In this document: positions 1 through 37,486 of the stretch, piece after piece
Layout of the letters: every line of letters begins with the position of its first letter
Position numbering within the stretch: the first letter of the stretch is position 1
Source of the DNA: Nitrosopumilaceae archaeon
GTDB lineage: Archaea > Thermoproteota > Nitrososphaeria > Nitrososphaerales > Nitrosopumilaceae
Direction of reading: 5' to 3'
Assembly (NCBI GenBank): GCA_965208905.1
Contig: OZ242365.1
Location: 1,760,001-1,824,000 of the forward strand
DNA length: 64,000 bases
Notes under the pieces: model-generated
Told to the model about the DNA's origin: nothing
The model's input: the letters and a program-made list of their open reading frames with translations, nothing else
Database searches by the model: none
Position numbers and translations under genes: made by a program

Positions 1-160
1 TGCGCTCCAACCTATCAAGTCGTCTTTTAAGAGACTCGATTATACATGACGAATACTTTAGATTGTAGCCGCTTGTCGCAACCGAGCGCATTTCCAGATT
101 CGCCCATATGGAATCGACCTTGCGCTCCAATTCATTCAGCCGCAATACCATATCCGTCAT
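1..160 (-). pseudogene. Hypothetical coiled-coil protein running off the window start; its 5' end is cut off by the TnpB TIR element
   Basis: Open frame MTDMVLRLNELERKVDSIWANLEMR...RLDRLER. Removing 171-1636 plus one TSD joins it in frame to ATG 1661 (MGKVEDALT-MTDM), which follows an SD-like GGGGTGA. Confidence 0.6.
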
Positions 161-170
161 GGTTAATGCA

Positions 171-1636
171 GGGAATTATATACAAAAGTACACAACCCAG
201 ATTCTGAGAGTTAATGCCTGAACCACGGATCTCGTCCATACAACTCCCCTTAAATACTAGTATGCCGTATTATATATTATGATACGTATAGTTAAGGTAC
301 CGCTACGGAGGGATGTGTTGTTTGCAGGGTGGGCGCACCGCACGAATCATGCGTCAAGATATGTGTACAACCGCGCCGTATCAGAGTATTTGTTTGGTGG
401 CGAATATATGGAGAGGGTGGTAGTGGACATCCTGCAGCCCTTCAAACTACCGGGCAAACTTAGTTTTACATCAGGTATGCTGGACGATGACTACCATACA
501 TATGATTTTGGGCCATCAAAGAATGTATTAAAGTACGGCATGTTCAAGCAGCTTACGGAGTGGCGCGCTGAACATGCATGGGTATCTGACTTGCCTATGG
601 TGTTTGGTAGGGGCGCCATACAGGATGCCTCTATCGCATGTAGAAGAGTTATACATGACAACTCCGGCCACGCGCCATACCGCCGCAAAGACGGCCGCAT
701 CATATTGAGTTCCGTTACACCGCCTATACAGAAAGGCGAGCACACCATACATATCCCCGGATATGGTATTGTAGAGACCGCCAAGCCCATCAATGTATTA
801 TGGGACATGCGCTCATTCAAGATAGTTGATGTCACCAAACGGGTGGACAAGCATACCAAACCATCAGACCACATGTTTGAGCTGCATATTGCCGTGCGTG
901 TACCGGTCGAGCCGCACCGTAATACGGGTGTAATACGTGGTGTTGATGTGGGCGGCAAGCACCTCGCCGTCACGGTAGATACGGACGGCAACGTCACAAT
1001 ACATGATACAAGACACAGACGCATACTGCGGGAGATTGATGCTCTCAAGAGTTTGCGCGACCGCAAGACACGGCATGGCCGGAAGTGGCATATATTGAAT
1101 GACCAAATAAAGCGGCTATACAGGAAGGCCAACAACATAGCCGCGAACACCATAAATCAGACGATTGCGCAGATAACTAATGGTATGGACGCAGTCGTGG
1201 TCGAGTCGCTCTCTATACAGGATATGACCACACATGGCGGGAATTACAAACGCGCCATGAACCGTTCAATGCGGGAGAACCATGTTGGGGAGTTCCTGCG
1301 CAAGCTTGCGCAGTGGTGCGAGATGCATAACATACCGCTGTTGGGGGCATCGGCCAAATATACGAGCCAGACGTGCCATGTGTGTGGTCACGTAGACTCA
1401 GAGTCGCGTATATCACGCGACAAATTCATTTGCACTAACTGTACCAGGGTATTCCACGCGGATGTCAATGCCGCCTGGAACATTCTGCATAGGGCGGCGG
1501 GGAACGTCGTCCTAAGACGGCCGGGGCACAAGGAGGGCTACAAGCCAACACCTTCTATGCTCCACTCCATACAACGAGGTCGTCAGAAAAGGCTTGAGTG
1601 TGCAGCCGAGGCTGTGTACTTTTGTATATAATTCCC
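171..1636 (+). mobile_element. Non-autonomous TIR element with IS1595-like ends, carrying only tnpB
   Basis: Perfect 24-bp TIR GGGAATTATATACAAAAGTACACA (171-194 / 1613-1636); 8-bp TSD TTAATGCA (163-170 / 1637-1644). Confidence 0.92.
279..1631 (+). CDS. tnpB: TnpB-family RNA-guided endonuclease, apparently intact
   Basis: RuvC-I GVDVG, RuvC-II VVESL, Zn finger TSQTCHVC..CTNC, RuvC-III HADVNAAWNI; the stop codon lies inside the right TIR. Confidence 0.92.
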   Translation: MIRIVKVPLRRDVLFAGWAHRTNHASRYVYNRAVSEYLFGGEYMERVVVDILQPFKLPGKLSFTSGMLDDDYHTYDFGPSKNVLKYGMFKQLTEWRAEHAWVSDLPMVFGRGAIQDASIACRRVIHDNSGHAPYRRKDGRIILSSVTPPIQKGEHTIHIPGYGIVETAKPINVLWDMRSFKIVDVTKRVDKHTKPSDHMFELHIAVRVPVEPHRNTGVIRGVDVGGKHLAVTVDTDGNVTIHDTRHRRILREIDALKSLRDRKTRHGRKWHILNDQIKRLYRKANNIAANTINQTIAQITNGMDAVVVESLSIQDMTTHGGNYKRAMNRSMRENHVGEFLRKLAQWCEMHNIPLLGASAKYTSQTCHVCGHVDSESRISRDKFICTNCTRVFHADVNAAWNILHRAAGNVVLRRPGHKEGYKPTPSMLHSIQRGRQKRLECAAEAVYFCI

Positions 1637-1693
1637 TTAATGCATCCTCAACCTTTCCCATTATTCATCACCCCCTGTATGTCCGGTACAATT

Positions 1694-2740
1694 CTATGAC
1701 TCCAGCCTCATTGGAATGTATTGTTTTGTAATGTAATCCAGTCCCTTCTCGGCAAACGCCTGCAGCTCAACCTTCTGTTTTATCTTAATGAAGTGCTTTA
1801 GTTCGCGCTGCCACATGTCTCCTGCAAAGCGCGGGTCCAGTAGGGTTTGCTTACATTTCTTTATGTCTACCTCCTTCATGGGGATTGTAACTTTAAAGTC
1901 GTACTCTGTGATATCGGTGGCCCACACACCCATCCATTTGGCATTGGGTACGACCAAATCGCGCAGGTGCGCGGACTGCGCAGAGCCGGCAGATATCACC
2001 CTTGCTATGTACATCCCCCACGGGTCTGCATCCGTAAATACGTATAGTGGCAGCTTGAACTGCTTTGTTATTCGGTGCAATACAATACGCGCGTTGCGCG
2101 ATGCCTGGCCGTTCAGGTCTACAATGATTGCCTTGTATTTGTCAACAATGCCGTCCTCGTACAGTCTTGTGAACGTGTCTGTTTTTTCAACGGCAATAAC
2201 ACACTCGGCGCCCGTCCTTACATACTCGGCGGTCGCCAAGGCAGGCGATATGCTCATGCCGTCCGGTATGGCATCCAACCTCATCTGCTTTCCTATATAT
2301 TTTGGGACAGTGTATTGTATCAGCATATCACCGTATATCGAGTTGCGTTCTGCCGGATACACGCCCAATAACTCGCGCGGCGTCTGCGTGACAGCCTCCA
2401 GATCGAATATCGTCTTGTCGGACTCGGACTGCGCATCGAACATATCAGGTAGTACGGACATGGATGCATAATACAGTCCGCGCATCGTAGTTGTCTTGCC
2501 CTGTTGCAGTAGCCCGTCCGATAACGAGGCGGCCCATATGAGCTGCATCATTGATTTTGCCGTGCTTACGTTGCCTGCAGAGCGCTCGGCTACCCCGTCG
2601 CCCAACACGTACTGCTTTGTGGCATCATCATATACGATGTTTGACGTATTGCGCGAAGGCACGCCAATTTTGGGAAACTCGCCCCTCTGTACACTCCTCA
2701 GATACTCCTCTGCCATGTTGCGCAGTTTTTCGCGTATCAT
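1694..2740 (-). CDS. top6A: DNA topoisomerase VI subunit A
   Basis: Catalytic-Tyr motif TMRGLYY, TOPRIM motifs AVEK and FTDADPWG; start at 2740 overlaps the top6B stop (ATGA). Confidence 0.9.
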   Translation of the reverse strand: MIREKLRNMAEEYLRSVQRGEFPKIGVPSRNTSNIVYDDATKQYVLGDGVAERSAGNVSTAKSMMQLIWAASLSDGLLQQGKTTTMRGLYYASMSVLPDMFDAQSESDKTIFDLEAVTQTPRELLGVYPAERNSIYGDMLIQYTVPKYIGKQMRLDAIPDGMSISPALATAEYVRTGAECVIAVEKTDTFTRLYEDGIVDKYKAIIVDLNGQASRNARIVLHRITKQFKLPLYVFTDADPWGMYIARVISAGSAQSAHLRDLVVPNAKWMGVWATDITEYDFKVTIPMKEVDIKKCKQTLLDPRFAGDMWQRELKHFIKIKQKVELQAFAEKGLDYITKQYIPMRLES

Positions 2741-4314
2741 AATACAGCCTCCACGGATGGTGTCTCTGTATTGCATATTGCGGCGGCGCGCTCCGTGCCA
2801 ATCACAAGATACTTGCGCAGTGCCTCCTGACGCTCCCTACTGCGCCTTTCCGCATGTTTTGCGTGTATGTAGGTCTTTGTTTTTTTGCCCAACTCCCATA
2901 CGCCCATCTGCACTTCGCGTGTTATCTCCGGGCGGTCCGCCACACCCTCCTTCCCTACGGACTTGTAGGGGACGCGCGTACTGCATATGTGAACACAAAT
3001 GGCTACCGGATCCTCCTCAATGTTTATGCCATATCGCTTCCAAAGTGCTTTGTTGTGTATCGTACAATATAGTGCATCTCCCTTCTCTCCATACAGTAAT
3101 GGTATGCGGTTCGCAAAACGATACACCCCAGGCTGTTTTATCTTACCCCCATATGCTATACCCATCTCTATGATGCATGGCCAACCACCATACGCGAATG
3201 GCCTGCGTTGTATCGTATGGATAACGTCGGGCTCAAATATAGTCTCCATGCCTTTTTGTAGTAGGCATGCCCCAAGGGGTGCTAGTACAGAAGATGTGGG
3301 CTTACTCCACTTCTCATATGATGCCATTGCATCGGCGAGCAGCACAACATCATTGTCTGAGAGTAGCCATATGGGAGTATCTGGTGGTAGATCCACATAC
3401 GAACAGAAGGACTGCGCGGTCTTGGGCCCGATGGTATCAAACGTACTTAGAAATTTCACAAGCCGTGGAGAGTGTTGTGTAATCTTCTTCACCTCGGCGG
3501 CCTTAAGGTTGTGCTGTACATCAGTATATAGAATGCGGTTGGGCAGATCAAGCGAGCGGACGTCCTCACCATTATACTTCTCATGTATAGTCTCTTGTAT
3601 CAGTCTGGTTATTGTTTCAGCATCCGTGCCCTGTGGGTGGGGTGTTGTGTTACGTGGTGGTTCCGGTACTACATCGGTGACGCGCCTGATGTTGATATTC
3701 TCACCGCGCGGTCCACTATACGTGATATTCGCGTATGGTGTGATTATACCGTTGTATTCGATATATCTGTGAATCTGTGTTGCCGCAAGTGAGTAGTTGC
3801 CGCGCAGGGTGCATCGTATCTCGGTCCCACTATGTTCACGGAGTTCCGTATGCTTTGATTTTATAATTGGTTTGTTGTGTTTTATGTCCAAAGTCATTAC
3901 ATATGTGGTCCAGCGCTTGCCGGTCCCGCTGGACACAACAAACGGGGTACGCGACGTAATCTGCCCGTACAGTATGGCCATAGTGGCGCCCATGCCGAAC
4001 ATGCCGCGCGCCTGCTTTAGTCCGAACTTACTGCCGTACATTATACTGCCAAATACTTCGGGTATGACGTCTGCGGGCAGCCCAGGCCCGTTATCGCGCA
4101 CCGTAATTGTATAGTCTGTCGGGTCTTTGCCCTCCCCCTCTATGCCAAGATATATGTCGGCAGGTATGCGCGCCGAGTCGCATGCATCAAGCCCATTCTC
4201 AAAGAACTCGCGTATGCCTGTGTATATTGCCTGTGTTGGGTTGCCAAAGCCGGCCATATCGCGGTTCTGGCAGAAGAATTCGGATGGCGATATTTGCTTG
4301 AACTTCTCGGACAC
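2737..4314 (-). CDS. top6B: DNA topoisomerase VI subunit B
   Basis: ISPSEFF, GHKL motifs ENGLDAC, DNGPG, RGMFGMG; RFANRIPLLY; VPYKSVGKE. Confidence 0.93.
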   Translation of the reverse strand: MSEKFKQISPSEFFCQNRDMAGFGNPTQAIYTGIREFFENGLDACDSARIPADIYLGIEGEGKDPTDYTITVRDNGPGLPADVIPEVFGSIMYGSKFGLKQARGMFGMGATMAILYGQITSRTPFVVSSGTGKRWTTYVMTLDIKHNKPIIKSKHTELREHSGTEIRCTLRGNYSLAATQIHRYIEYNGIITPYANITYSGPRGENINIRRVTDVVPEPPRNTTPHPQGTDAETITRLIQETIHEKYNGEDVRSLDLPNRILYTDVQHNLKAAEVKKITQHSPRLVKFLSTFDTIGPKTAQSFCSYVDLPPDTPIWLLSDNDVVLLADAMASYEKWSKPTSSVLAPLGACLLQKGMETIFEPDVIHTIQRRPFAYGGWPCIIEMGIAYGGKIKQPGVYRFANRIPLLYGEKGDALYCTIHNKALWKRYGINIEEDPVAICVHICSTRVPYKSVGKEGVADRPEITREVQMGVWELGKKTKTYIHAKHAERRSRERQEALRKYLVIGTERAAAICNTETPSVEAVL

Positions 4315-9969: not shown

Positions 9970-10046
9970 TACAGTGGAAATAGTCTGCGGGCGGAAACGA
10001 TGGTTTGTAGTGGAAACATAGGCAGGTCACAGATTTTCCAATTTTA
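9970..10046 (+). repeat. Dispersed GTGGAAA-rich repeat, split by the IS1595 insertion (continues ~12745-12795)
   Basis: CAGTGGAAATAG..GCGGAAAC..AGTGGAAACATAGG..GGTCACAGATTTTCCAATTTTA aligns with the reverse complement of 13467-13626. Confidence 0.6.
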
Positions 10047-10101
10047 GGGAATTATATACTTAAAATCAATCTTTATATAACCAGTGATTCTAAGGTGTAT
10101 A

Positions 10102-11043
10102 ATGCAACAAGCACCAGGTAAAAGCCACCGTGAAGGAATAACACTAGTGAAACTGTTCAAGATGTTTCCCGATGATGAAACGGCTGAAAAATGGTTTGAG
10201 TCAAACATATGGGGTGATGAGCCATGCTGTCCGTATTGTGGCAATACAAATGTAACAAAGACTGTAAACCAATCACAGCCGTATTACTGTGCAGGTCGTG
10301 GGAATTGCCACAAGCGGTTCTCTGTCAAAGTCGGCACCATAATGGAGCATTCCCATATCACATACCAACAGTGGGCAATCGCAACATACCAGTTCATGAC
10401 TAATGTGAAAGGCATTAGTTCAATGAAGTTACATAGGGATTTAGGCATTACCCAAAAGTCCGCATGGTTCATGGTTCAACGGTTAAGAGAATCATGGAAG
10501 ACATTAGCAAGTGTAAACAAGATGGAAGGTCCAGTCGAGATTGACGAGGCTTATTTCGGTGGCAAGGAAGGTAACAAACACGCAGACAAGAAAAGACCAC
10601 ATAGTCAAGGTGGAGCCGGCAAGGTTGCCGTTGTGGGAATAAAAGACCGCAAGACAGGTACAGTAAGAGCTCAACCCGTACCAGAGACTACCACAGCCCG
10701 TCTTGGTGAATTTATTAAACAAAACACCGAGACGGGCGCTACCCATTATACAGATGAGCATAAAGCATACAAGAGTTTACCAAACCATCATGTAGTTAAT
10801 CATTCCGTTAGTCAATATGTCAACGGCATGGCACACACAAATGGCATAGAATCCTTTTGGGCTTTACTAAAGCGTGGTTACTATGGAACATTTCATCATA
10901 TTTCGGCAAAACACCTACACAGGTATGTCAATGAGTTTGCAGGTCGCTTGAATATACGCAACATGGATACAATAGACATGATGGTAAGCATGGTTCAAGG
11001 CATGGTTGGCAAACGACTTACGTATGACGTACTCATTTCATAG
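10102..11043 (+). CDS. IS1595-family DDE transposase
   Basis: Zn ribbon CPYC, QKSAWFM HTH, VEIDEAYFGG, YTDE, HTNGIESFW, YVNEF. Confidence 0.93.
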   Translation: MQQAPGKSHREGITLVKLFKMFPDDETAEKWFESNIWGDEPCCPYCGNTNVTKTVNQSQPYYCAGRGNCHKRFSVKVGTIMEHSHITYQQWAIATYQFMTNVKGISSMKLHRDLGITQKSAWFMVQRLRESWKTLASVNKMEGPVEIDEAYFGGKEGNKHADKKRPHSQGGAGKVAVVGIKDRKTGTVRAQPVPETTTARLGEFIKQNTETGATHYTDEHKAYKSLPNHHVVNHSVSQYVNGMAHTNGIESFWALLKRGYYGTFHHISAKHLHRYVNEFAGRLNIRNMDTIDMMVSMVQGMVGKRLTYDVLIS

Positions 11044-12491
11044 TAGCAGGTATCGCACGTGGCTTCAATATAGAGAGATCTGGTTTGATACCTTTTGATT
11101 TTAGTGTGGCGATTAAGTATGCCAAATCCCTATTTCCTTTTGTACTGTTACATGCTCCACATAATAACATCAGATTATCAATATGGTCAGTGCCACCTTT
11201 GCTTTGCGGTATGATGTGGTCTATTGTAAAATTCCTAAACGGAAAGTGTACATTACATAGACAACGGCCTTCTTGCCTACCGTATAGTTCATGTTTGCGT
11301 GTGCGGTAATTTGGTATTGCGCCTTGGTCAGTACGTTTAGGTGCCTTATCGCGGTTGGTGATCTCATAATGCCTTAACCCCATAGTGCGTTGAGTTCGCA
11401 TGGCGACAAGTTCAACGGCCTTGTGCGATAGATCAATACCGACCCATTGACGGTTTAGTTTTTCGGCAGCCACACATGCCGTTGCGCACCCACAAAACGG
11501 ATCAAACACAATATCACCCTCATTGCTTGAGGCTTTTATAATGCGTTCTAGTAATGCTAATGGTTTTTGGGTTGGATAGCCTAATGCTTCTCCACTACTT
11601 GAAATTCTCGGTATATCATTCCAAAAATCATCTATAGGAACACCAACGTAATCTTCTGCATACTTACGGCGCTCTAACTTATTATTCTCATGTATTACCA
11701 CATTTCCCTTATCGTATTCTTCTTCCAATCGTTTTTTGCTCAATCGCCATCCACTAGGATGTGGGTTAGTAAATCCTCGCCATGTATAACATAGGTTAGG
11801 ACGATCACCCATTGATTTGGAACAAAATATCGGTATACCAGTCTTATATCGTCTCCCATCAACATCCACTTTAGGAAATTGTTCTCTCATTTGCTCTGAC
11901 GTAAGTTGCTGATATGGTCGCAATGTGGTTGTAGCAGTCTTAACATAGAATAACAGAATGTCAGTATTGCGGCCCCACTGTTTTGGTTTATGTTGAGAAC
12001 CTTTTCCTCTTTTATCATTGCGTTGCCAATGTACTTCATTACGAAAATTGTCTTTTCCAAATATTGCATCCATGACCAGTTTGAGGTAGTGACTGGCAGT
12101 TGGATCGCAATGTAAGTATATAGACCCCCCCCCCCCCGCGCAGGATCCGCCTCATCTCGATAAGGCGAATTCCCATCATGATAAGATATGACATCATGGA
12201 TTTGCCATGCGTATTACGAGTCGCATCAATAACAGCATGCAATGCGGGTTCACTGTCAGCCAAGTAGCCATGCCATGCAACATCCACATCACTCAATGAC
12301 CATGTATCCTTGAAAGCGGCCCCGGCCGCCTTAGAACCTATTGGTGCTTCATATGAGCGATTGGAATTGAATGGCGGATCTAAATATATCAAATCGACTG
12401 ATTCAGAGTTCATGCCCCGCATTATATCCAAGTTATCACCTGTCCACATGGTACGGTTTGACCAGTTAGGATCGTTCATACTATACATCAT
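11033..12491 (-). pseudogene. Beta-class N6/N4 DNA methyltransferase fused to a C-terminal HNH nuclease, frameshifted at a G13 tract
   Basis: DLIYLDPPF in the 5' frame; GSIYLHCD, YPTQKP, DPFCGC and IDHIIPQSKGG..NL..LC..CN in the 3' frame. The frames switch at C13 12125-12137. Confidence 0.88.
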
Positions 12492-12837
12492 ACATTATCG
12501 GTATATTTGACTACTGCCCAACAGTTTAAACCATGTGATCAAACTTTCTTAACCATACGTCACGTTTATAAAATAAGGATATGAAAGCAATTTCAAGGGC
12601 TCAAATCAACGCTCTTTTCGTCATTGGGGTCACTCCCTTTGGCTTTTGTAGTTTTATCATTGCCTGTCTTGTTGCTTTCATAACATACCTAGGAAATATG
12701 GATTATATAAAGATTGATTTTAAGTATATAATTCCCCAATTTTATGTTACAAATTTCCCAACCGTATAGTAGGTCACTATTTCTTCCCAATTCCCCCCAG
12801 ACGCAACGCTTTTCCAGATAGCTAGGATAACTCACTT

Positions 12838-35878: not shown

Positions 35879-37486
35879 GGTTCCTCCCGCAAAGTCGGGT
35901 GATTACACCCCCGCCATGCGGGATAGTCTGTCAGCCCAGTTGCTCCAGCAACCCTGTATGAGTGGTGTGGGACACAGTATTACATCCACACCACGACGGA
36001 CTTCGCCCAGACTGGCCGAAACCTGACGACCATATCGTGATACGGCGCTTGTTCGCCGTATGTTCTCCACTGTATTGACATCGCGATCTACGCCAACTAT
36101 ATGGCAGCGGGTGCAGTCTTTTCTATGATAAGTTCCAGTTAGTATGGTTCTGCATGCAGCACACAACTTGGATGTGTTGTGTGGACGCATATGTAATGCC
36201 TCCACTCCCAAAAACCGGGACTTTTCATAAATTAAATCCGATGCCTTTCGCATCATGGCAGAATGTAATCTGCGACGCATGCTGCGTCCAAACTTTCCAC
36301 CCTTCTGCCAATTGTACGATATGTGGGTTAAATCCTCCAACATAACCAAACACCCGGATTGTGCGGCCCACTGTGCAATGCATAGTGCTATCACGTTCAG
36401 CACATGTTCGTGGTGGCGCATGGCTTTGGCTACCCTGCGCTTTTTAGCACTCTTTTTTGACTTTGTGTGGTTATGTGGTATGCTCAATACGCATCTGCTT
36501 CTTTATCTCGGCGACCCTCTTGTGTTTGCCCTCCCTCTTGAGTTTCCTGTATCTGCGTTTGAGTTTGCTGTGTAACTTGTGACCACCATGTGCGACTTGT
36601 TGCTTTTCTCTGCGTTCCTCCTCTTTCTTGTGTGTAATGCGCCTTCCGGTACGTGCCGCATATGTGATATTATCATGTGTACGTGTATACGTATTGTTTG
36701 CATCCTCAGTCTTTGCCTCCTCAATGGCCTGTATCGTATCGGATAGATCAAACTGTACCACCGTATTTTTATCACCTACGGTGATGTTCTTTTCATTAAT
36801 ATCCACGCCAATTACATCCCTTGGTGTGCCGCCCACACAACCCACATCCGTAAGCAACTCGATAATCTCTGACTTGCCGTGTGGGTGGGGTCTTTCAACC
36901 TCGGGCACTTTATTATGATATGTTATGGTGTATGTGGTTGGCGTAATCCATAACTTGCCCAACTCATTTTGTCTTATTTTACGTACCACATCTGAAGAGA
37001 TAGGAATTGCTATCATATGTGGGTGTTTTGATGAGCCAACATTTGCAATAGCCATATATCCACCCGCTATCGGATTCAGCCTCCAATTTTGGTTTTTTAA
37101 CTTTACAACCGGATTACAGAATACAGGTTCAGATACCTTCATGCCCTGTGCAGTCTTCGTATTGTACGTTTTATGGGCGGCAACCCCGTCCCGTATGGCG
37201 GTCTGCGTTATGGACGAATATACTTTGGGGTCAGGACCGCGCATTATACGATATATCAATGCGTTAACACCATAGGTATTCCTCCCTGTATTATTCGCTA
37301 TAATGTACGCCACTTCTGCTACCTTCCTGACATGTTCAAACACATGCCGCATACCCAAATTTTTTGTGTATGGACGTGTTACTGCCCTGCCATTTTTTAC
37401 AAGAGCCATCATACAGTACGGTTTAATGACGTATTTAACGCTATCCAATGACACATCAACCATCACCTGACTTTGTGGGAGGAATC
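35879..37486 (-). mobile_element. Non-autonomous TIR element carrying only a TnpB-like gene
   Basis: 25-bp TIR GGTTCCTCCCGCAAAGTCGGGTGAT (35879-35903 / 37462-37486, 3 mismatches); 8-bp TSD ACACTTAG (35871-35878 / 37487-37494). Confidence 0.88.
35903..37466 (-). pseudogene. tnpB: Long TnpB/Cas12f-like nuclease with one frameshift near 36480
   Basis: VIGVDIN (5' frame); VMLEDL, TSKLCAAC..CTRC, DRDVN..NI (3' frame). Confidence 0.82.

Follow-up and report, generated by a model that had tools for sequence, protein, structure and literature searches.

Prokaryotic TnpB proteins are usually found in IS200/IS605 or IS607 elements, and for IS605 TnpB a logic of retention and homing has been shown. The IS1595 family, as set out by Siguier and colleagues in 2009, is said to include members with passenger genes. 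Associations of TnpB with DDE transposases have also been described. The relevant passages of Altae-Tran et al. (2023 PNAS; PMC10691335) define six DDE-associated TnpB branches (DDE-1 to DDE-6) with inverted terminal repeats, as well as solo TnpBs whose ends equal those of transposase-bearing copies and which are thought to be mobilised in trans; the main text of that paper names IS630 and contains the term IS1595 zero times. The corresponding part of a 2026 review (PMC13565253) gives ISL2, IS630 and IS1031 as DDE partners, and argues that the TnpB-DDE pairing is rare in prokaryotes and should bring little benefit. In Fanzors, as presented in sections of Yoon et al. (2023 NAR; PMC10711439), the RNA scaffold incorporates the target duplication, and about 15 nt separate the duplication from the start of the guide. 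A search of the literature for TnpB together with IS1595 returned, by title or abstract, no paper on their association.

The locus considered here lies in a 64,000-nucleotide stretch of DNA (the window) from a Nitrosopumilaceae archaeon. Its archaeal origin, already assumed in the initial annotation, agrees with the encoded topoisomerase VI and with the named relatives, which are Cenarchaeum and Nitrosopumilaceae MAGs. An element of 1466 bp (1.47 kb), in which tnpB is the sole gene, forms a discrete mobile unit at positions 171-1636. We regard it as probably a transposase-less IS1595 derivative that carries a functional TnpB module, and its movement in trans by an IS1595 transposase is very probable. 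As such, this TnpB cassette is a further case of a known arrangement, the transposase-less TnpB element with DDE ends. The novelty first attached to it was overrated, TnpB in DDE transposons, transposase-less copies included, having been published in 2023 (PMC10691335, in the passages mentioned above). Its features, with those of a transposase-bearing element in the same window, are collected in Table 1.

Table 1. Position of the TnpB element, its flanks and a transposase-bearing IS1595-family element in the window.
Feature	Position	Strand	Remarks
Candidate TAM, ATGG (family consensus A-T-N-G)	159-162	+	abuts left target duplication 5'; putative TAM role
Target-site duplication TTAATGCA, left copy	163-170	.	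present once in the empty allele of run X5
Left terminal inverted repeat	171-194	+	24 bp perfect, imperfect to 197; first 13 nt GGGAATTATATAC = IS1595-clade end
Left non-coding region	195-278	+	spacer ~199-248 weakly conserved, conserved stretch from ~249 (profile of 15 copies)
tnpB, 450 aa	279-1631	+	RuvC D-E-D and zinc finger intact; stop codon within right repeat
Predicted omega-RNA (reRNA) scaffold	1371-1636	+	overlaps tnpB 3' end, reaches element end
Right terminal inverted repeat	1613-1636	-	also codes last TnpB residues VYFCI*
Target-site duplication, right copy	1637-1644	.	predicted first 8 nt of guide, judging from the position of the flank motif
Predicted guide segment	1637-1656	+	omega-RNA read-through into flank, by canonical TnpB geometry
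Transposase-bearing IS1595-family element	10047-12736	+	39-bp inverted repeat starting GGGAATTATATAC; duplication CAATTTTA at 10039-10046 and 12737-12744
Transposase of the 10047-12736 element	10084-11043	+	Pfam DDE_Tnp_IS1595 138 bits and Zn_ribbon_IS1595; NCBIfam transpos_IS1595 176.7 bits
Passenger of the 10047-12736 element: DNA methylase-HNH gene in two frames	11033-12491	-	

The inverted repeat GGGAATTATATACAAAAGTACACA is identical at both ends of the element (0 mismatches) and extends imperfectly to 28 nt; it was found twice in the window, against 0 matches expected from 100 shuffles. The initial annotation had described 24-bp terminal repeats, an exact 8-bp target duplication, a reading frame that ends within the right repeat and an interior devoid of transposase. 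All four features were recovered, with the stop codon at 1629-1631 and with TnpB as the only Pfam-positive ORF within 171-1636. The only other long frame, antisense at 491-1153, matches no Pfam family and does not stay open in every copy; it was taken as a by-product of composition and rejected as a gene. Upstream of tnpB, the conserved stretch contains, at 250-256, the sequence TTAAATA, which may be the archaeal TATA box of a tnpB mRNA with almost no leader.

The annotation of the 450-aa product as an intact TnpB with three RuvC acidic residues and a zinc finger also held. The protein matches Pfam OrfB_IS605 (PF01385, 36 bits) and Cas12f1-like_TNB (PF07282, 61 bits), and scores 131 bits against NCBIfam guided_TnpB, for which the cut-off is 100. 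Its matches to PDB structures reach E values of 5e-12 to 9e-8, the acidic residues (GVDVGG, VVVESL and HADVNAA) align to the catalytic motifs of solved TnpB-type nucleases, and the CxxC...CxxC zinc finger is present. The ORF is intact in 14 of the 15 full-length copies of the genome and the median dN/dS of tnpB is 0.21 (91 copy pairs), which shows that TnpB is under purifying selection.

Searching for further copies and for empty alleles, as had been proposed at the outset, was fruitful in both respects. The 15 full-length copies lie at different sites, share 80-100% amino acid identity and all terminate exactly at the inverted repeats. The 8-bp duplication is exact in 11 of them, differing from site to site, has one mismatch in another and is absent from three. 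The 24-mer repeat, with up to 3 mismatches, gave 22+19 matches in the genome and its control pattern 0+0. In two sister species as well as in this genome, homologues with 56-92% identity have the same ends, mostly with an 8-bp duplication, and not the IS605 or IS607 ends that would have spoken against the initial reading. At the present locus, a metagenome contig from another study (run X5) joins window position 162 to 1637. This precise empty site leaves out 1474 bases (1466 + 8), with 8 ambiguous bases at the joint and flanks about 95-97% alike; the insertion carried by this genome is thus missing from a related population.

The last ~260 nt of the element are predicted to form a conserved, co-varying RNA fold, as expected of a guide-RNA scaffold. 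Region 1371-1636 folds at -98.5 kcal/mol (z -3.33), and in the consensus fold, built from 16 sequences of two species, 97.8% of cells are paired. Pairs changed on both sides number 10, versus 6.1+-1.1 in shuffles (0/500 reached this) and 1-3 in slid controls; most of these compensatory changes go back to a single species split, and the alignment in which they were counted also served to derive the structure. The helices concerned are 1492-1512 and 1516-1521 paired with 1579-1584. At the 3' end of tnpB, synonymous divergence drops only slightly (dS 0.28-0.33, against 0.36-0.61 in the rest of the gene). An Rfam scan of window positions 1-2000 gave no match; a sub-threshold HDV-like hit (20.6 bits for a gathering score of 44, E 0.61) was taken as chance. 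Transcription would continue beyond the right repeat into flanking DNA, so that the guide would consist of the right duplication copy and the DNA downstream of it, a geometry that we consider fairly likely. The duplication varies between sites and the conserved motif lies outside it, and the duplication is therefore more likely to be the start of the guide.

This motif is one-sided. Among the 12 full-length copies that bear a duplication, G precedes the left duplication (position -1) in all 12, and A at -4 and T at -3 are found in 9 each; the right flank of the same copies has no pattern. The G is also present in the interrupted copy at 1972621-1975198, in the three clear left ends of one sister genome (G018) and in five of seven left ends of another (G065), the other two being without it. 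It is absent from two of the three duplication-less copies. Whether A-T-N-G, directly 5' of the left duplication, is the TAM of this nuclease is in our view an even call.

A real, if minority, possibility is that the element is as described above and that its left-flank motif has another origin, either a site preference of the cognate transposase or promoter or terminator signals of the host in combination with selection on orientation. The insertions are indeed intergenic, the duplications are AT-rich and TATA-box-like, a gene start lies 2-134 nt past the left end, reading away from it, in about 9 of 16 copies, and TnpB families B and T2b contribute only 4 counts each. A preference of the DDE transpososome should, however, be symmetric, and the right side has none. 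The 32 transposase-bearing IS1595 elements with the same termini show no preference at -1 either (A6 C14 G5 T7 on one side, A7 C9 G9 T6 on the other), and family B, which shares both the host genome and the GGGAATTATATAC ends, has G in 0/4. The same holds for a second type of ends: the first 14 end bases of T2 and T2b are identical, but their motifs differ (TA in 8/8 versus ATTG or ATTA in 4/4), and the IS6-like transposase-bearing type of a Nitrosopumilaceae MAG has TA at only 4 of 21 ends. As for host signals, the G persists at left sides without a nearby gene start. The left-side gene contexts of the copies are heterogeneous, and host promoters, once these contexts had been tested, were not sufficient as a source of the motif.

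If A-T-N-G is a TAM, the retention and homing logic of IS605 TnpB may have been carried over to a transposon that makes a target duplication. Cleavage by TnpB and its RNA would be confined to alleles that are empty or have lost the element by precise excision, in which the TAM is followed by one duplication copy and the right flank; a filled copy, used as template for repair, would then bring the element back. The filled site would be safe because, at its right end, it is the repeat that precedes the DNA matching the guide and, at its left end, the match stops after 8 nt. We know of no route by which a DDE transposase comes to insert beside a TAM, and it is not obvious that homing by itself would yield the motif in 12 of 12 copies.

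The assignment to IS1595 is based on the ends. The terminal 13 nt, GGGAATTATATAC, and the 8-bp duplication are common to elements that encode an IS1595 DDE transposase. In other organisms, the same paired ends with 8-bp duplications were found at 29 of 80 IS1595 transposase loci, the ends being scored there with the shorter core GGGAATTATA at up to 1 mismatch. In the genome itself, IS1595 transposase genes are flanked by these ends and an 8-bp duplication four times, and the GGGAATTATATA core occurs 47+45 times, versus 0+3 for the control. The 171-1636 element has no DDE_Tnp_IS1595 gene, which makes it a non-autonomous derivative and not a complete IS1595, and since it carries only tnpB, it probably depends on a transposase encoded elsewhere. 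The DDE transposase gene would have been replaced by tnpB and the omega-RNA scaffold overlapping its 3' end, the inverted ends and 8-bp target duplication of the family being retained. The initial annotation had inferred an archaeal nuclease domesticated by a DDE transposon family. TnpB as the only cargo within IS1595-type ends is borne out, and "domesticated" is loose wording for what the data describe, a transposase-less passenger cassette.

No element containing both an IS1595 transposase and TnpB was found, either among the 80 transposase loci or among the four copies of this genome. The single TnpB match among these loci, in the related Nitrosopumilaceae MAG L088, falls outside the IS and was rejected as IS1595 cargo, and a 2851-bp element of another genome (G083) is a D-family TnpB split by another IS, not a unit of TnpB and transposase. 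Two further sets of genes were set aside. A weaker IS1595-like group (139231, 781451 and 1404389) is fragmentary and without inverted repeats, and no candidate for the mobiliser; the IS6-like genes at 1101135 and 1257533 have other ends.

A cognate mobiliser in this genome is at most putative, since the resident copies with a transposase agree with the repeat of the TnpB element over its first 10-13 nt only and differ from it in their inner repeat sequences. For the transposase-bearing element of MAG L088, the repeat matches at 18 of 24 positions. One may therefore ask whether the family is a fossil here, its former mobiliser, an IS1595 transposase whose inner repeats matched, having since disappeared, and TnpB being kept by its own retention activity or by drift. 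This we judge rather unlikely. Besides the limited match of the resident copies, it can draw on the presence of fragments and interrupted copies of the family and on the closest copy pairs, whose dS of 0.04-0.18 means that recent jumping is not demonstrated. Against it stand the intact ORFs and low dN/dS reported above, left and right repeats that are matched over 23-30 nt in most subfamilies, and the polymorphism of the present site between populations with closely similar flanks. A 115-bp MITE of this genome, with ends close to those of the TnpB family and the exact duplication AAAATTAA, is a further point against it.

The position of the motif raises the question of whether TnpB itself takes part in transposition, either as the transposase of TnpB-only inverted-repeat elements or, docked on the TAM, by directing the DDE transposase to insert beside it in a fixed orientation. 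Inverted repeats with 8-bp duplications do bound several clusters, namely A, B, T2, T2b and some of C3 (9 bp for the single T6 copy), and the fixed distance and orientation of the motif in 12/12 copies are not easily explained by homing alone. Participation of TnpB nevertheless appears very improbable. In its ends and in the length of its duplication, the element agrees exactly with IS1595 transposase-bearing elements of many bacteria, and the T2 ends surround IS6-like DDE transposases in a relative and, in decayed form, in this genome. To our knowledge, no transposition of DNA by TnpB has ever been demonstrated, and TnpB cuts on the TAM-distal side.

Chance nesting of an ordinary IS605/IS607-type TnpB element in an unrelated MITE, for which only the general rule on the usual residence of prokaryotic TnpB can be invoked, is hardly tenable and was ruled out: all 15 copies stop exactly at the inverted repeats, the empty allele lacks the entire repeat-bounded unit and one duplication copy, the ORF runs into the right repeat, the ends have no internal IS605-type hairpins (single-stranded DNA folding z +0.64 and +0.88, no better than shuffles), and the genome, 99.6% complete, has 75 TNB-domain (TnpB-type) matches and 0 for either Y1_Tnp or Resolvase (serine recombinase).

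The transposase-less IS1595 derivative may belong to a wider pattern. The genome contains eight TnpB clusters, with at least two types of DDE ends: those of IS1595 and, in the case of T2 and T2b, those of an IS6-like family. Clusters A, T2 and T2b each have a one-sided motif of their own exactly abutting the left duplication (A-T-N-G, TTA and ATTG, respectively). A broader and in our opinion improbable proposal would be that the TnpB/omega-RNA modules of this thaumarchaeal lineage have left their Y1 and serine partners and ride transposase-less derivatives of at least two DDE families, the duplication being the first 8 nt of the guide. In that proposal, either a TAM-docked TnpB would set the insertion site and orientation of the DDE transposase, or TAM-dependent homing would be strong enough to leave none but TAM-flanked insertions. 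Docking is its boldest version and would amount to a guide-independent, CAST-like partnership.

This locus offers a clean archaeal case of TnpB with a cut-and-paste DDE transposon, with many copies, an empty allele and transposase-bearing partners. Should the motif be a TAM, a transposon with a variable duplication could follow the same retention logic as IS605 TnpB, using the duplication as a portion of the guide, and how insertions come to adjoin a TAM would be a new question. The eight clusters and their different DDE ends would then be a natural set of TAM specificities.

The closest comparison is with the DDE-associated TnpBs, as covered in the passages of PMC10691335 cited above. Here as there, TnpB lies within DDE inverted repeats that also bound transposase-bearing copies, and its 3' end is less than 250 bp from the end of the element; the present case differs by having no two-gene element, a thaumarchaeal host and a putative TAM outside a variable 8-bp duplication. 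The TnpB-only elements of the IS1341 type within IS200/IS605 (ISDra2 TnpB, PDB 8BF8/8EXA) share the RuvC and zinc ribbon domains and, by prediction here, a structured RNA overlapping the 3' end of the gene, a TAM on the left and a guide on the right. IS200/IS605 elements, by contrast, have subterminal hairpins and a Y1 TnpA, and no inverted repeats or duplication, where the present element has repeats and duplication, no hairpins and no Y1. IS607, with its serine recombinase TnpA, differs in the same two terminal features, and Resolvase matches number 0 here.

Fanzor1 and Fanzor2* elements, within what is presented in sections of PMC10711439, are similar in being non-autonomous, in having inverted repeats and a duplication with a nuclease as only gene, and, by prediction here, in using the repeat as part of the guide-RNA scaffold. 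Their hosts are eukaryotic or viral and not prokaryotic, and the duplication, proposed here as the start of the guide, belongs to their scaffold; this different geometry counts against the one that we propose. With the IS1595 family, the element shares the terminal GGGAATTATATAC, the AT-rich 8-bp duplication and the carriage of passenger genes, as with methylase-HNH in the 10047-12736 element, but the transposase gene is missing and tnpB is the sole gene. Like MITEs, it has no transposase, ends and a duplication typical of a family, multiple copies and presumed movement in trans; unlike them, it contains a 450-aa gene on which purifying selection acts, together with a predicted structured RNA.

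The organization that the initial annotation had described, with 24-bp terminal inverted repeats, an exact 8-bp target duplication, an intact TnpB and a stop codon within the right repeat, was indeed present in the sequence, and the repeat GGGAATTATATACAAAAGTACACA matched twice in the window against 0 expected from 100 shuffles. The encoded protein matched the Pfam families OrfB_IS605 and Cas12f1-like TNB zinc ribbon, as well as NCBIfam guided_TnpB (131 bits, cut-off 100). Its nearest solved structures were TnpB-type nucleases (E-values from 5e-12 to 9e-8; ISDra2 TnpB gave 9e-8), with which the RuvC acidic residues, already noted in that annotation, aligned as D, E, D. An antisense frame inside tnpB matched no family in a Pfam search; base composition probably accounts for it. 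A small minus-strand ORF (2-160) has its ATG at 158-160, and the element lies 2 nt upstream of it. This ORF directly follows the topoisomerase VI genes A (1694-2776) and B (2737-4314), and the insertion may separate it from its own upstream signals.

Coordinates of the TnpB element and of related features (window positions unless stated otherwise)
Feature	Position	Strand	Remarks
Left inverted repeat, GGGAATTATATACAAAAGTACACA	171-194	+	exact match
Right inverted repeat, reverse complement of GGGAATTATATACAAAAGTACACA	1613-1636	-	0 mismatches with left repeat
Target duplication, TTAATGCA	163-170 and 1637-1644		flanks both element ends
tnpB ORF	279-1631	+	450 aa; sole convincing gene of the element
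tnpB stop codon	1629-1631	+	within right repeat
Antisense frame inside tnpB	491-1153	-	220 aa; open in many, not all, copies
Clearest RNA helices	1492-1512; 1516-1521 paired with 1579-1584		consensus fold
Transposase-bearing IS1595-family element	10047-12736		39-bp inverted repeat, duplication CAATTTTA
Methylase-HNH passenger of 10047-12736	11033-12073 and 12039-12491	-	two overlapping frames
T2-cluster element, 1608 bp	35879-37486		inverted ends GGTTCCTCCCGCAAAGTCGGG..., duplication ACACTTAG
Further TnpB-cluster sites (examples, same genome)	C1:250605-252075, 768099-769460, 376975-378453, 1018802-1020516

Mobility was clearly documented, both within the genome and outside it. A 1256-nt contig from a metagenome of another study joined window position 162 directly to 1637, skipping 1474 bases (1466 + 8) with 8 ambiguous bases at the joint, while its flanks differed from the window at 5/158 and 29/609 positions. 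This contig is a precise empty site with one TTAATGCA, in a related population; we consider it decisive, and the element is a discrete mobile unit. The genome itself (a single contig of 2,214,775 bp, 45.6% G+C) harbored 15 full-length copies of this TnpB, with 80-100% amino acid identity, in addition to fragments. All 15 terminated exactly at the inverted repeats, and the 8-bp duplication was exact in 11, carried one mismatch in one and was absent from three, the exact ones having a different sequence at each site. The ORF was intact in 14 of the 15 copies, with a median dN/dS of 0.21 (91 pairs).

The ends were of the IS1595 type. Their 12-nt core GGGAATTATATA (at most 1 mismatch) occurred 47 + 45 times in the genome, against 0 + 3 for the reversed control. 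Four elements of the same genome, with a GGGAATTATATA-type terminus or a close variant and an 8-bp duplication, encoded a 313-320-aa protein that scored 138-142 bits with DDE_Tnp_IS1595 and also matched the zinc ribbon of IS1595. One of the four is the element at 10047-12736 of the window, whose transposase reached 176.7 bits with NCBIfam transpos_IS1595. The best 80 of 589 stretches related to this transposase in a species-representative collection came mostly from bacterial MAGs of varied phyla (40-55% identity), and 29 of these 80 displayed paired GGGAATTATA... ends with an 8-bp duplication (at most 1 mismatch). Together with the elements of the genome itself, these loci indicate that the terminus is a signature of this IS1595 transposase clade, in line with the earlier view of TnpB as cargo of an IS1595-type element. 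None of the same 80 loci contained a TnpB inside the IS. The nearest relatives of the archaeal transposase (L088-L167), some of them from MAGs with sponge-type names, e.g., Poriferihabitaceae, had the same terminal 13 bases as the archaeal IS; such sequence likeness suggests that co-resident bacteria and archaea exchanged the IS. Several other derivatives were observed: a sister copy of the 10047-12736 element (genome 1043578-1046414) with an intact 454-aa methylase, a 115-bp MITE (C1:658457-658571) with inverted repeats close to those of the TnpB element and duplication AAAATTAA, and a 45-bp mini-element (C1:882738-882782) consisting of two IS1595-type ends only. Both refutations offered in the initial annotation, an ordinary IS605/IS607 context and internal IS605 hairpins delimiting a smaller element, failed: the genome gave 75 TNB-domain hits and 0 hits for Y1 transposase or serine resolvase, both of which were detected in control genomes, and single-stranded folding of the ends gave z-scores of +0.64 and +0.88 relative to shuffles, hence no excess stability.

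At E <= 1e-40, relatives of this TnpB were present in six of nine other genomes of the genus; a sample of 191 genomes, covering 26 other genera of the family, had 0. A large protein collection contained 40 clusters at 45-92% identity, below which identity fell to no more than about 34%; those with a name were "transposases" of Cenarchaeum sp. MAGs. In a sister-species genome (G065), copies with 56-58% identity shared the first 13 end bases with the element. The inner part of their repeat was different, yet left matched right in five of seven copies examined, so that in most subfamilies the two ends stay matched even though the inner sequence of the repeat drifts. An exact 8-bp duplication was present in 5/7.

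The full-length TnpBs of the genome formed eight clusters. Further clusters sat between inverted repeats TGGGCTGTGACG..., GGnnCTGTCAAATC..., GCTGGTAACTAAACG... and GGGTGTGTCCCAC..., next to 8- or 9-bp duplications. The TnpB of the element at 35879-37486, encoded on the minus strand, was decayed. In a Nitrosopumilaceae MAG, ends of this type bounded a 388-aa IS6-like transposase (DDE_Tnp_IS240; duplication CCAATTTG), and in the genome itself they bounded a frameshifted homologue thereof at 926302-927837. In cluster D (470 aa, the third with IS1595-type ends), two copies (C1:1455264-1456879 and 2049469-2051084) shared GGAAATTA crosswise, one copy having it on its right and its partner on the left, which suggests, from the flanks, a rearrangement by recombination between them. 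A further genome carried an element of 2851 bp (G083:C1:1891181-1894031) bounded by IS1595-type ends and the duplication TTTTTATT; it is a D-family TnpB interrupted by another IS encoding a 318-aa ORF.

The flanks, counted with each copy oriented by its TnpB, carried a one-sided motif. The base preceding the left duplication (-1) was G in 12/12 duplication-bearing full-length copies (10/10 in a stricter set), with a chance of about 2e-8 if G is taken as about 0.23 of bases; A at -4 and T at -3 were each found in 9/12, and the position beyond the right duplication displayed no base pattern in the same copies. G was also found in the interrupted copy at 1972621-1975198, in one of three copies without duplication, in three of three clear left ends of a second sister-species genome (G018, a fourth being ambiguous) and in 5/7 G065 copies. 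By contrast, a control set of transposase-bearing IS1595 elements, all 32 having exact duplications (28 from elsewhere and four from the genome itself), favored no -1 base on either side (A6 C14 G5 T7 on one, A7 C9 G9 T6 on the other). TnpB family B of the same genome, about 33% identical with the same ends GGGAATTATATAC, had G in 0/4. A second end type gave a comparable picture. Clusters T2 and T2b, whose first 14 end bases are common (GGTTCCTCCCGCAA), were flanked by TA at -2/-1 in 8/8 T2 copies (first duplication base C in 7/8) and by ATTG (three) or ATTA (one) in T2b. In a Nitrosopumilaceae MAG, TA preceded 4/21 ends of one element type with the same 21-nt terminus, three of these stretches matching the IS6-like transposase. 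For about 9/16 left ends, the neighboring feature was a gene start at a distance of 2-134 nt; the others faced stops or nothing, yet carried G at -1. Judged from these flanks, the motif follows the TnpB cluster, and not the element ends or host context. There is about an even chance, in our view, that it constitutes the TAM, a position which would fit a guide that starts at the right copy of the duplication. We know of no mechanism that makes a DDE transposase insert next to a TAM, and it is not obvious how homing by itself would lead to 12/12 G.

The last 266 nt of the element folded at -98.5 kcal/mol, compared with -82.4 ± 4.8 for shuffles (z -3.33; 1/200 as good). A consensus fold of the last 300 nt, from 11/15 copies of the genome and 5/7 of G065, comprised 56 pairs with 97.8% of cells paired; 10 pairs had changes on both sides, versus 6.1 ± 1.1 in shuffles (0/500 reaching 10) and 1-3 with partners slid, the structure being derived from the very alignment scored and most double changes reflecting one split between two species. 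The region is also protein-coding, with dS only mildly lower, and matched no Rfam family. This provides moderate support for a putative omega-RNA scaffold ending at the element's end.

From a mechanistic point of view, the element is probably a transposase-less IS1595 derivative mobilized in trans, whose RNA would extend past the right repeat and into the adjoining DNA. TnpB and this RNA would then cleave only the predicted TAM + duplication + right flank, i.e., an empty or precisely excised allele, and recombination with a filled copy would restore the element by homing. The proposed mechanism has two weak points. Resident transposase-bearing copies agree with the repeat over no more than its first 10-13 bases (the best match among transposase-bearing elements, 18/24, was in a related MAG), and copies differ by dS of at least 0.04.

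TnpB in DDE-type ends is a known kind of association. The main text of Altae-Tran et al. (2023; PMC10691335) describes DDE-associated TnpB branches, all six with inverted terminal repeats, with IS630 as partner of DDE-6, and solo TnpBs with ends matching transposase-bearing systems; IS1595 has 0 mentions in that main text. Passages of a 2026 review (PMC13565253) give ISL2, IS630 and IS1031 as DDE partners, in an association rare in prokaryotes, and likewise do not name IS1595. A full-text literature search for TnpB with IS1595 returned no paper on the association by title or abstract. In Fanzors, as described by Yoon et al. (2023; PMC10711439), repeat and duplication belong to the RNA scaffold, whereas the guide of the TnpB element is suggested to begin with the duplication, a different geometry. 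To these known systems, the present work adds clean mobility evidence, a genome with several TnpB clusters on DDE-type ends (IS1595, IS6-like) and no Y1 or serine transposase, and a flank motif that is one-sided and cluster-specific.
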